From a virus, in IMG/VR virus record IMGVR_UViG_3300042549_007551, positions 1-64,000 of that record: DNA of 64,000 nucleotides; one strand, written 5' to 3'. Shown here piece after piece: positions 13,449-42,056 of this stretch (its first letter is position 1; the number at the start of each line of letters is the position of its first letter). Below the pieces are notes generated by a model. That model saw only the letters and a program-made list of their open reading frames with translations. It had not been told where the DNA came from and ran no database searches. Both the position numbers and the translations under genes were made by a program.

Positions 13449-13685
13449 ATGCCTAAGTCTAAAATCAAAAAGGTTCTTGTACCAAAATTAGATGCAGATA
13501 CTGTTAATAAATTACAAGAACAGTTAGATGCAGAAGAATCAGAAGTACAAAACTATGAAGATCAAATGGAAGCAGAACTTAATCAAGTAGGTTTAGATGA
13601 TAATTTTGTTGAAGAAATTTCTAAACAAGTTGAAGAAAAAACAACTGATTCCAAAGATTTAAAGCCAACACGTAGAGACGCTTAA
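13449..13685 (+). CDS. Acidic coiled-coil hypothetical protein
   Basis: ORF; last CDS of the + arm. Confidence 0.7.
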   Translation: MPKSKIKKVLVPKLDADTVNKLQEQLDAEESEVQNYEDQMEAELNQVGLDDNFVEEISKQVEEKTTDSKDLKPTRRDA

Positions 13686-13716
13686 CATAAAAAGATTAGC
13701 CCACTTCACGGGCTTT

Positions 13717-13827
13717 CTAACTAAACTCTTTATTGGGGTAGTCGGGTAAGACAATCTATAAACCTTATGGGCTAAAGATTGTAACGTGGGTTCAACTCCC
13801 ACCTACTCCACCAAAGAGTTTAGTTAG
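13717..13827. repeat. 15-bp perfect inverted repeat flanking the tRNA-like RNA
   Basis: CTAACTAAACTCTTT (13717-13731) / AAAGAGTTTAGTTAG (13813-13827). Confidence 0.85.
13735..13813 (+). ncRNA. tRNA-like RNA resembling the tRNA-like domain of tmRNA (Ala identity), with no mRNA domain
   Basis: Acceptor stem GGGGTAG/CTACTCC with G3.U70, discriminator A and encoded CCA; T-arm GTGGG-TTCAACT-CCCAC; stemless D region TCGGGTAAGAC; 7-bp ACAATCT/AGATTGT helix. Confidence 0.75.
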
Positions 13828-13897
13828 GTTAACTTATAAGCACCACATAAGTTGATACATCTACCCCCTCTTTCTTTCTACGGTGCTAAAGTTATAT

Positions 13898-13923: not shown

Positions 13924-16900
13924 TTAACGGAGTGCAACACGACTACGTCTATACCGTACATACTGACGCCACTTTGTATTCTTAACTAAACTATAAGGAT
14001 TAACTCTAGGCTTACGCATAGTTCCGTACTTAGTAAACCAGTCTCTATAAATATTTTCATACTTAGCCCAACGTCCATTGCTACCATAAAGATAACGATA
14101 ACGTTTCGGTGTGTACTTTTCATAATCAGGTACAGTATACAAAGGTAATATGCCTGAACTTAATGGAATGATTGGGTTTTTATTCTTAGAAACAAACGGA
14201 GCTAAAGGACCTTGTGTTAACTGTTCTCTTACAGGTAACTTATTAAGTACGTTACTAATAGGACCTGCAATAGCTAACTGTCTTATGCTTTGTAAAACAT
14301 CTTTTGTTTCTAAAAACTTAGACAAACCTCTTAATAAAGGACGTTGTCTATCTAATAACGAACGACCTGGATCACTTAGTAATTTTTGTACATCAAACAA
14401 ACCAAACCCAAGACGTATACCAACACCATTATATATACGTAACCAACCGTTTTGCATTTCAAATAATTCAAATGGACTGTATTCTCCATCATCATCTGTG
14501 TATTGTCCATACACACCGTCAATAATATCACTCAATAATACAGACATTCTTGGATCTAATATACGATCAATCCAGTTTGTTAAGGAACGAACAGGGAAAG
14601 ATAAATAAGGTATGTCTGCAAGTAACTGCATTTCTAAAGGACTTCTTAATCCGTAATTAAAAAATCGTTTAAGAGAAGAGTTAACAGCTTCTTGGAAAGT
14701 GTAACCTCTTAACTGTCTGTCTAATAAGTAACCTGCAATACGACCTACGTTTTCTATGTTAGCGTTTAAATCAGAGTAAGTATATTTATAACCTTTATGA
14801 ACTAAACCTAATAAACCTTTATTAAATAAACCATTCTTTTCTTTTTCTATTTCATCATAAACTTCTTTAAAGGTTCTTGTTTCAGTATCATTGAAATCAT
14901 TTAACTTTCTTTCTTCTACAATATTTCTTAAGTACTCAAAAGTTTCTTGTCTATATACGTCTACTTGTGCGTTTGTTTGCATGAAAGCACTGACTTCAAA
15001 CAATATCTTTTTAAGATCTTCATAGTCAGCAGAGTACACAGGTTGACCGTTGCTATCTAAAGTAGTTTTATATTTTTCTAAACGTTTATTAATACGTTGA
15101 CGATAAAGATTTGTTTCTCCTGGATTAAACTTTAATGAATCGTACAATGTAAAATATTCTGCGAACCTTGTGTCCCCTAAAAAAGCTACTGATTCTTGAA
15201 GAGCAATATTATATGTAATATTTTTTAAAGCTTTTACATTTTTAAATTTAGAAGTAACTTTGATATTATCTAAATCTTTTATATCTTTAACACCAATAAC
15301 AACGTTTAAAATATAATTACCAATACCTTCTAAACGTTGACTAATTTCTTTTGCTTTAATTAAACGAGTTTCTATTCTTTTTTTAACATCTTCTTTTTTA
15401 ATAGCTTCTGCACCGTCAATATAATTTTTTAATCTATCTTTTATAATATAAAAGTTTTCTGTGATCGTTAAAACTTCTTCATTTGTTACGTTATCTTTCT
15501 TTAAAAGTAACGATAACATCTTATCATATGCAGTTTTAACTTCTAATAAACTTAATAAACGTTCTTCAGATACATCTTTATAAATGTTATAAACATCGTG
15601 AGTCAACCCCATGATTCTAACGATTTGTTTTCTATTTTTAAATGCACCGAAAACACCAAAGTCTTTATAGAGTTCACTATATAATTGAGTCCATGTATCT
15701 AAATAGTTTCTCATAATAAACCCATAGTTAAATCTCATTAATAACTTTTCAAGGTACTGTAACTGTGCTAATATGTTTGACCAACCACCTTTAAATCTAA
15801 ATGGTTTATAAGCTTGGTTATACAAACTCATTAATGAATCGATTGTTACAAATCCAAATTGTAAATTAACACCTTCATCAGCTTGATATTTTTTAATAAG
15901 ATTAAATATTTTTTCTAAATCTTTCCAACTTCTAACATCAATTTGTTTAGTAGTTAAAGATAAATCTTCTTTAAAATTAATATTATCTAAATCTACACTA
16001 GTATATTCTTTACCATTAAAAATAATTGAATTAACTTTTTTATCTTTAGGGTCATTTAATTGTTTGACATATGATTCTATTTCATCAAAGCTATTAAATC
16101 TTACTTTATCTCTATGCTTCGCCGCCCCTATGAACTGTTGCCAACGTGTTTTCTTTTCCCATTCTGGGTCGTTTTTTCTAAACAAATCACCAACACGTTT
16201 TATTAAACCTTCAGAAGCGTAACCATCTTTTACCACAACTAGTCTAATAAAATTAGAATTACGTTTAACATGTTCATACATTGTTTTAAAATCGTATACT
16301 TCTTTTTTAGTTTTGTTACCATTTTGGTCTACAACAATAATGTCTTTTTTATACATACTTGCTAACGTAATAAAAGGAACAACTGATTTATCAATGTTCA
16401 TTAAATTAGTATGTTTAATTCTTTCAACATCTTGTTTACTTAAAGTTTCTTCATCACCCATGATTCTAGGTATACCTTGCTTTAATAAATCCATGCTTTC
16501 GCCTTCAGGAGTATGTAATAAAAACATACCTTGAGCAAACTTACGTGAGAATATTTTAGATATAACTGCTAGTTTAATATCACGTCTTCTCTTTTCTAAC
16601 TCTAATAATTTCTTGTTAAAATAATCTAAGGTATCTTGTTTGCTAAGATCTTTGACTTCATCAATAGCTAACTTTACTTTATTTTCTTCGTTTGATTTTT
16701 GTAATATAAGATTACCTAATGTTTTTATTCTAATTTCTTTACGTTTTATTTCATCGTTTTTACTACGAAGATTATTGTCAGCCACATTTATTTCTTTTAT
16801 GTATCTTTCAATACGATTAAATGATAATTCTTTATTCAATAAACGAATTGCAATATCATTAACAGTCGTTTTATCAACAGTTTTATTTCTGCTGTTATAT

Positions 16901-41483: not shown

Positions 41484-41755
41484 TTGACTTTATCCGCCCA
41501 ATACGCTGCAGACATCTTACCTTTAGCAATATTACTTGCGTGTCTTGCTTTAAAGGCTTCTCGTCTTGCACGGTAGCTTGCAGACTCACCATCTTTTTTA
41601 GGTGATCCACTCACACCTTGTTGACCGAATCGAATGGTCTTAACATCATCTCCAGACTTTGCCACAACCACGTGTGACTTGCTAGGATGGTTTGGTGTAC
41701 GTTTAGGTTTGTTATAACCTGATACGCCAATACGATTAAGAATTGCTTTTGACAT
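41477..41755 (-). CDS. Small basic conserved phage protein
   Basis: KPKRTPNHPSKSHVV..IRFGQQG..FKARH..SAAYWADKVKW; AAGGAG RBS. Confidence 0.75.
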   Translation of the reverse strand: MSKAILNRIGVSGYNKPKRTPNHPSKSHVVVAKSGDDVKTIRFGQQGVSGSPKKDGESASYRARREAFKARHASNIAKGKMSAAYWADKVKW

Positions 41756-42056
41756 GTTCTTCTCCTTTTAATAATATATCACGTTTATATTTTAATAACA
41801 AATTTCTAAACCAAACTGCTATGATAATGTTAAGAATCCAGAACGGTGTAAAAGGCGCTAAAATAAAAGCGTATACTGCAGCAGCTGCAATATAACCGCG
41901 TTCATCTTGAAAAACAAATCCATATGCTAGTGGTAAAAACCACGGTAGTGACGTAATAATGTTAGCAAAAATCCAACTGATCCAACCTTCTTTAGTAAGT
42001 AGGATTTCTTTGACTGCTTTTTTTGCTTTGGTTAAAAAATTATTTTGGATTGCCAT
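41736..42056 (-). CDS. Small membrane protein
   Basis: Two to three hydrophobic segments. ATG 42056 preferred over the ORF-track start at 42131. Confidence 0.65.
   Translation of the reverse strand: MAIQNNFLTKAKKAVKEILLTKEGWISWIFANIITSLPWFLPLAYGFVFQDERGYIAAAAVYAFILAPFTPFWILNIIIAVWFRNLLLKYKRDILLKGEEHVKSNS

Follow-up and report, generated by a model that had tools for sequence, protein, structure and literature searches.

A 79-nt tRNA-like RNA gene with neither anticodon nor tag-coding part, of the TLD-only tmRNA build, in uncultured freshwater phages

Phages bring tRNAs and, rarely, whole tmRNAs. [quoted passage not shown] RNAs reduced to this domain have been described. The listing of Hudson, Lau and Williams (2014; PMC4131195) contains a tmRNA entered as "Mycobacterium phage DS6A (TLD only)", and a passage of the same paper, citing Mao et al. 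(2009), states that a TLD-like molecule, chargeable or not, strongly inhibits tmRNA, perhaps via titration of SmpB. [quoted passage not shown] The first-pass annotation of the locus described here implied that a TLD-only phage RNA would be new; this does not stand, because the TLD-only tmRNA of DS6A had already been published.

The phage DNA analysed here is that of IMG/VR record IMGVR_UViG_3300042549_007551 (75.8 kb, ~77% complete), the DNA of which is present in lake-water and freshwater metagenomes (24 DNA runs). The window, which is the 64-kb stretch of this record that was analysed, carries at 13735-13813 on the plus strand a gene for a 79-nt tRNA-like RNA without anticodon or tag (mini-tmRNA or TLD-only type), as defined by the reading of the sequence, the minimum-energy fold, Rfam, our own covariance model and nine variants. 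The 5' acceptor strand GGGGTAG (13735-13741) pairs with 13803-13809 in the sequence and in the fold, with G3 (13737) opposite U70 (13807). It is followed by a stemless 9-nt D-loop, TCGGGTAAG (13742-13750), the GG of which is able to dock on the T-loop. In place of the anticodon arm, a variable hairpin of 32 nt (13751-13782), identified from the sequence and its relatives, comprises a 7-bp basal stem (ACAATCT/AGATTGT) and an 18-nt, partly paired apical part. The 3-nt linker AAC (13783-13785), invariant in the nine variants and GAC in the tmRNA consensus, connects this hairpin to a T-arm (13786-13802; GTGGG-TTCAACT-CCCAC) that is canonical both in sequence and in the Rfam tRNA alignment. The RNA ends with the 3' acceptor strand CTACTCC (13803-13809), A73 (13810) and an encoded CCA (13811-13813); all of these parts lie on the plus strand. 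The alanine identity set of the RNA (G1-C72, G2-C71, G3.U70, G4-C69, A73 and CCA) is found in all nine variants. The parse given in the first-pass annotation (7-bp acceptor stem with G3.U70, A73, CCA and canonical T-arm) was exact on re-reading, and its statement that a D-stem and a canonical anticodon arm are missing also held, the 9-nt loop and the 32-nt hairpin being present instead. The mRNA domain is absent, as claimed: there is no tag frame and there are no pseudoknots, and the D-loop is separated from the linker by no more than 32 nt. The minimum-energy fold predicted by RNAfold is identical to the parsed structure; its z-score is -2.76 without the flanks, a stability matched by 5 of 200 shuffles, and -6.3 with them, which 0 of 200 shuffles attained. 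This fold and the recurrence of the element in other phage and metagenome contigs show that it is more than a product of chance.

Homologues were sought in IMG/VR and metagenome contigs by scanning for sequence patterns and for neighbour proteins, and duplicates were removed. Nine distinct variants of the 79-nt RNA were identified in uncultured phages. The 5' 16 bases and the last 31 bases are almost invariant among them, and the middle 32-40 nt consist of at least five unrelated hairpin sequences, each with its stem between ...TAAG and AAC... (in the L148 variant, the basal stem has just 3 bp). The D-loop is identical in the nine close variants and NNNGGYAAG-like in wider relatives (L270, L193, L183 and L273). 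In the nine-variant alignment, 96.3% of the cells are paired under a model consisting of the acceptor stem, the basal hairpin and the T-stem, and eight pairs are changed on both sides, namely all six basal hairpin pairs and two T-stem pairs. None of 500 shuffles was as good as this three-helix model, and slid partners were 46-51% paired. The acceptor stem is 100% paired in the nine variants, its sole change being that of U5-A68 to U5.G68 in L129, and the first two T-stem pairs covary in L060 and L148 (G-C to A-U and U-A to G-C). The search for covarying homologues in related phages that the first-pass annotation had proposed was thus successful, with compensatory changes in both the hairpin and the T stem. 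We conclude that 13735-13813 is a real, conserved, structured RNA gene and that the structure of the RNA is under selection. The ending of the D region in GAC, to which attention had also been drawn, is seen in window-type and L011/L058-type variants but not elsewhere: in the other variants, G16 is followed by two bases that already belong to another stem, as its first pairs, and this feature is therefore not conserved.

The tRNA-like halves are identical between phages whose neighbour proteins are ~80% identical, or whose DNA polymerases are only ~31% identical. Our own covariance model (R1) gives 97.7 bits for the window RNA and finds exactly one copy per phage record. A blastn search of the 1-kb region of the window against 50,697 phage records yielded no match. 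In the close relative G003/L013, the Sak4-like protein of which is 80% identical to that of the window, no copy of the RNA was found by the covariance model anywhere in the 79%-complete record, indicating that the RNA gene is dispensable and accessory.

ARAGORN called no tRNA or tmRNA in the window, nor in the carrier loci L003, L006, L011, L021, L060, L129 and L148. The only Rfam match above a gathering score was that to the tRNA model RF00005 (31.4 bits vs. a gathering score of 29); almost all of this score comes from the acceptor stem and the T-arm, and the alignment requires a weak D stem and a 13-nt "anticodon loop". When the element alone was aligned end to end to the tmRNA model RF00023, 326 model positions were deleted and the score was 30.1 bits, the gathering score being 47. 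The Rfam models recognise the acceptor stem and the T-arm and cannot separate tRNA from tmRNA in this case. An Rfam-type cloverleaf imposed on the nine variants leaves the D stem 83% paired, with no compensatory change, and the anticodon stem 69% paired. An alternative cloverleaf-like pairing is possible only in window-type and L003-type variants, and no 7-nt anticodon loop is formed even there; the hairpin model fits all variants. Because ARAGORN finds no match and no 7-nt loop is conserved in the variable hairpin, a decoding function is impossible. A decoding tRNA was rejected for the further reasons that a D stem is not conserved, that no 5-bp anticodon stem closes a loop of 7 nt and that no anticodon can be read, and the checks against Rfam and ARAGORN that had been suggested thus agree that this is not a normal tRNA. 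An attP or integration remnant of ssrA or tRNA-Ala, which the first-pass annotation had named as an alternative, was ruled out as well: the full pairing 5' half is present, so that both acceptor halves exist, the helices are kept by compensatory change, and no match to the integrase profile PF00589 was found in the 77%-complete phage record. The SmpB profile PF01668 also found no match in this record.

The window RNA has the build of a TLD-only or CDS-less tmRNA of the DS6A kind, with an acceptor stem, a stemless D-loop, a closing hairpin, a T-arm and alanine identity and with no coding part. Like the DS6A RNA (L165:28478-28560; JN698994 28478-28560; tmRNA Website tmID 11587), it is phage-encoded, ~80 nt long and composed of a G3.U70 acceptor stem, a T-arm, a stemless D-loop and a short hairpin that takes the place of the entire message/pseudoknot domain, without a tag frame. 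However, the DS6A RNA has a tmRNA-type D-loop (..UGG..UCGAC), an ACUA end and an RF00023 score of 43.2 bits, which is also below 47, whereas the window RNA has a shorter, 9-nt D-loop, an AAC linker, 30.1 bits on RF00023 and an encoded CCA (ACCA end). The carriers differ as well: DS6A is a temperate actinophage with an annotated integrase, whereas the window phage is uncultured, comes from lake water and yielded no integrase in its 77%-complete record. With full-length tmRNA (RF00023), the window RNA shares alanine identity, the T-arm, a stemless GG D-loop and a helix that leaves the elbow in place of the anticodon arm, but it lacks the resume codon, tag frame and pseudoknots, is 79 nt rather than ~350-440 nt long and scores below the gathering threshold. 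The claim that it has the architecture of the tmRNA TLD holds for these shared parts; the sequence of the D-loop is of the NNNGGYAAG type and departs from the tmRNA consensus (TCGGGTAAG with an AAC linker vs. GG.UUCGAC with a GAC linker).

The organellar CDS-less tmRNAs of jakobid mitochondria and Mallomonadaceae plastids likewise contain little beyond the tRNA-like domain (PMC11915505, PMC4131195). However, these are the organelle's own rescue RNA, working with imported SmpB, whereas the window RNA would be an extra, virus-borne copy beside the complete tmRNA of the host. With tRNA-Ala (RF00005), the window RNA shares the acceptor stem, the discriminator, CCA and the T-arm, and its 3' half occurs in identical form in tRNA-Ala genes, but its D stem is not conserved, a 5-bp anticodon stem closing a 7-nt loop is missing, and a 3-nt linker stands where tRNA has a variable loop of 4-5 nt.

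The occurrence of this 3' half (T-arm, acceptor strand and CCA, with the T-loop degenerate at two positions) was examined by scanning one genome per species. Identical 3' halves are present in tRNA-Ala(UGC/CGC) genes, both in a tRNA array on a MAG contig (a probable phage array) and in Lentisphaeria/Victivallales (Lentisphaerota) MAGs. A near-identical one, differing by one T-loop base, is part of the tmRNA of 1.2-Mb Bacilli MAGs from rabbit (gut) samples; on RF00023, 104.9 bits are obtained for this tmRNA, whose acceptor strand is likewise GGGGTAG and whose D-loop is that of a normal tmRNA. Since the 3' half is common to tRNA-Ala and tmRNA, the acceptor/T-arm half is generic for alanine-type RNAs, and because the two Rfam models also score alike, descent from tmRNA and descent from tRNA-Ala are both compatible with these data. 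The same matches were considered as pointers to the host and discarded: rabbit-gut Bacilli, Lentisphaerota and a probable phage tRNA array do not fit a lake phage.

A pattern scan of IMG/VR (AAC linker, T-arm and ...TCCACCA end, with U70 fixed by the pattern and a filter accepting G3 or A3) placed the RNA in a wider setting. Among the matches listed were full-length phage tmRNAs of 350-441 nt, ordinary tRNA-Ala genes and short forms. At least 36 distinct RNAs of 100 nt or less were not called, or oddly called, by ARAGORN; at least 15 different acceptor stems are represented among them, and all have a hairpin of variable length. Many of these short RNAs contain a short GG D-loop that ends in AG (e.g. 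AUAGGUAAG, AUUGGUAAG and ACGGGUAAG), the loop boundary in the rest being beyond the reach of our crude parse, and some have tmRNA-type D-loops, like DS6A. The base at position 3 opposite U70 is G in all of the short RNAs listed (at least 36), although A3-U70 was also accepted; as U70 was preset by the pattern, this uniformity is supportive, but not unbiased, evidence for selection on alanine identity. An AAC linker also exists in full-length phage tmRNAs that are called by ARAGORN.

Two other arrangements were observed in the course of this work. In 90-138-kb phage contigs, L022, L026 and L030 each encode a different tRNA-like RNA of ~95 nt with a full cloverleaf, a real D stem with the same TCGGGTAA motif in its loop, a long extra arm, G3.U70, A73 and CCA; its "anticodon" arm is a 10-bp rod with a 5-nt loop, and ARAGORN makes no call. 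In L273 (6015-6161), an ordinary-looking tRNA-like gene lies one base ahead of a 70-nt alanine-type anticodon-less RNA, which shows that such RNAs can also sit in tRNA clusters.

The rightward replication genes of the window phage (helicase, DNA polymerase, exonuclease, Sak4-like protein and two small ORFs) end at 13685, and a leftward 8038-aa ORF ends at 13924; the RNA gene is located in the 238-bp gap between these convergent blocks. The 8038-aa ORF (13924-38040, minus strand) has a G+C content of 26-30%, markedly below that of the rest of the window. Pfam and PHROGs searches of the neighbouring small ORFs and the early genes revealed nothing translation-related, and the small ORFs have no family match. 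No sigma-70-like promoter was predicted just upstream of the RNA gene. A second phage type that carries the RNA (L003, L004, L006, L021, L129, L060 and L148) is represented by records of ~30-53 kb, the most complete of which is G006 (44.7 kb at 92%), and its DNA polymerase is ~31-33% identical to that of the window. In L021/L129, as in the window, the RNA is at the end of the rightward replication block, convergent with the late genes. In L003/L004/L148, it is upstream of the next gene and follows opposite-strand genes, and in L006/L021/L129, it adjoins and overlaps the upstream ORF.

In the window, the RNA gene is flanked by an inverted repeat, seen in the sequence and in the fold with flanks, with arms at 13717-13731 and 13813-13827 (both given on the plus strand) that are complementary at 15 of 15 positions, the first base of the 3' arm being the terminal A of CCA. 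Window-type relatives retain this repeat, with one compensatory C-G to T-A change (L005-type). It is absent from the carriers L003, L004, L006, L021, L129, L060 and L148, and L013 has a homologous long hairpin with a 9-nt loop at the same convergent junction (L013:6160-6210) but no RNA gene. Therefore, the 15-bp clamp described in the first-pass annotation is present as a perfect repeat but is not a feature of the RNA family; the stem is an independent hairpin with the RNA gene in its loop. The comparison with L013 suggests that the RNA was either inserted into the loop of an existing hairpin or cleanly lost from it. The stem may be a transcript-end or RNase III-type structure and, in the window lineage, may help to release the RNA.

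Further hairpins are located on both sides of the repeat. A G+C-rich hairpin followed by a T run (13698-13714, minus strand), found by pattern scan only and kept in relatives with changes only in the loop, is the sole terminator-like site near the junction; as it is on the minus strand and lies past the RNA gene, late transcription of the 8038-aa ORF would run through the complement of the RNA, so that sequence antisense to it would be included in the 3' tails. A second small hairpin (AACTTAT/ATAAGTT; 13831-13853, without assigned strand) lies between the repeat and the stop codon of the 8038-aa ORF and persists in L005- and L011-type relatives, where its stem sequences differ. An 8-nt pairing of the hairpin loop of the RNA (13768-13775) with the upstream hairpin (13696-13703) was considered and rejected: it is at about chance level in 351 nt, and no counterpart was seen in the L011-type variant. 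In other carriers, the variable arm of the RNA is tipped by a 16-nt palindromic hairpin with TATAAT in its sequence (L060:9058-9073 and L270:7011). The same hairpin occurs twice, 40 nt apart, just downstream of the RNA in L006 (1614 and 1654) and L021 (825 and 865), and also at 3093 in L290 and L302. These occurrences suggest that a local hairpin resembling a promoter or a terminator was taken up into the variable arm.

A gene for a two-transmembrane (2-TM) protein is present in the window (41736-42053, minus strand) and in L003, L004, L006, L021, L060, L129, L148 and L289-L303. The protein matches no Pfam or PHROG family, falls into 74 environmental clusters and reaches 76% identity in comparisons of phages with DNA polymerases of only ~31-33% identity, which suggests that its gene has been exchanged between phage types. 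The gene adjoins the RNA in L003/L004/L006/L021/L129/L148 and is near it in L060/L298. G003 has the gene without the RNA. Among 15 IMG/VR loci with the 2-TM gene, the RNA is found within 2.5 kb only in L296/L297 (the L003/L004 contigs) and L298, and six small-phage loci (L290, L291 and L299-L302) have the gene and no RNA within 2.5 kb. Given these loci, no functional link between the RNA and the 2-TM gene is claimed.

In L006 (gene at 1236-1487, RNA at 1481-1559), the stop codon TAG of the conserved 83-aa 2-TM protein coincides with bases 5-7 of the RNA (...AAG GGG TAG), and the same is true of L021 and L129; the overlap has been retained between L006 and L129, the 2-TM proteins of which are ~65% identical (by eye). 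In this type of arrangement, an RNase P cut at base 1 of the RNA would deprive the 2-TM mRNA of its stop codon. A parallel has been noted in Carsonella, in which tmRNA maturation should yield a non-stop smpB mRNA (Hudson et al. 2014; PMC4131195). A built-in non-stop switch, of which the RNA would be one half and thus no mere passive sponge for SmpB, can accordingly be imagined, although we regard it as very unlikely: each maturation event would yield one non-stop mRNA and one tag-less rescue competitor, and the RNA would decide whether the 2-TM protein is SsrA-tagged and destroyed or released untagged (perhaps with one added alanine), and would in this way set the timing of a protein that may be related to lysis. 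In the window phage, the RNA and the 2-TM gene have come apart.

With regard to function, our preferred but tentative reading is that the alanyl-tRNA synthetase (AlaRS) of the host charges the 79-nt RNA and that the RNA, by analogy with DS6A, competes for SmpB and EF-Tu, thereby interfering with host rescue and tagging. In the mechanism that we infer, the RNA would be transcribed as the tail of the rightward replication operon, host RNase P would cut at G13735, and 3' trimming would proceed to the encoded CCA. In the window lineage, the flanking 15-16-bp stem may assist as an RNase III-type site or a transcript-end hairpin. Minihelices with G3.U70 are known substrates of AlaRS, and the host enzyme would be expected to charge the RNA with alanine. 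Having neither an anticodon nor a resume codon, the RNA could not decode or tag; it would occupy host SmpB and EF-Tu, enter stalled ribosomes and compete with host tmRNA, which would blunt SsrA tagging during infection. In the TLD-SmpB geometry (PMC3968760), a helix-2 stub would point away from the decoding centre and could vary in length and sequence, as the hairpin does. The selected structure, the alanine set in all variants, the G3 of the short relatives, the lack of a decoding part, the DS6A precedent and the AAC linker shared with full-length phage tmRNAs support the competitor reading. The points counted against it are the off-consensus D-loop; the RF00023 score of 30.1, which is below 47, below the 43.2 of DS6A and no better than the RF00005 score of 31.4; the occurrence of the 3' half in ordinary tRNA-Ala; the absence of the gene from the 79%-complete record of G003/L013; and the alternative cloverleaf of the window- and L003-type variants.

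The chief alternative is that the RNA serves as a tRNA-like element for processing or stability ("t-element" or tRNA punctuation), in which RNase P and 3' trimming would give the operon mRNA a defined, protected 3' end and charging would be irrelevant. The terminal position of the RNA in the rightward replication block, in the window as in L021/L129, the lack of a predicted sigma-70-like promoter just upstream, its contact or overlap with the upstream ORF in L006/L021/L129 and, in the window lineage, its nesting in a hairpin that L013 has at the same transcript-end position without the RNA would all suit such an element. However, RNase P and RNase Z need only the acceptor/T-arm shape, so that the retention of G3.U70, A73 and CCA over at least 15 acceptor stems is left unexplained, as is the conserved single-stranded GG D-loop, and in L003/L004/L148 the RNA is upstream of the next gene after opposite-strand genes and thus ends no operon. 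We consider this rival unlikely, but not to be neglected. An alanine-type tRNA mimic with another target, either a decoy or sponge for a host factor or for an anti-phage toxin acting on acceptor ends or CCA, or a non-ribosomal alanine donor, appears rather improbable. It would be in keeping with the acceptor/T-arm half being the selected part, with the lack of any phage-encoded tRNA in the window (ARAGORN) and with the accessory nature of the gene, which is absent from a close relative, as counter-defence genes often are. Yet no defence or transferase gene is linked to the RNA, the neighbours of which are replication genes and small ORFs without family match; moreover, the defences that most often target tRNAs are anticodon nucleases, for which an RNA lacking an anticodon loop could not act as a decoy.

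A functionless decayed fragment of tRNA-Ala or tmRNA, an attP-type remnant, or an ordinary decoding tRNA missed by the detectors is extremely unlikely. Although RF00005 just passes its gathering score (31.4 vs. 29) and the 3' half is identical to that of tRNA-Ala genes and one T-loop base off Bacilli tmRNA, the maintenance of three helices by compensatory changes over diverged phages largely refutes this explanation. In addition, the acceptor stem has both its halves, a search of the 77%-complete record revealed no integrase, ARAGORN finds nothing, and a cloverleaf of the Rfam type would have 83% of its D stem and 69% of its anticodon stem paired, with a loop of 13 nt rather than 7 nt.

The tag-less tmRNA head is on record for one phage only, DS6A, with E. 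coli as the sole test organism. The same design is now found in freshwater phages that are uncultured and whose genomes belong to two or more very different types, and among the matches listed by a scan of IMG/VR are dozens of further short, anticodon-less relatives of alanine type. For genome annotation, ARAGORN misses such genes and Rfam files them as borderline tRNA. If the competitor reading is true, the RNA would act as a natural inhibitor of trans-translation, which is being explored as a target for antibiotics, and at 79 nt it is small and easily synthesised and tested (alanylation, SmpB binding and a tagging reporter). The distribution of these genes suggests that the manipulation of ribosome rescue, or of another alanine-tRNA-dependent step, may be a common and unannotated strategy of phages.
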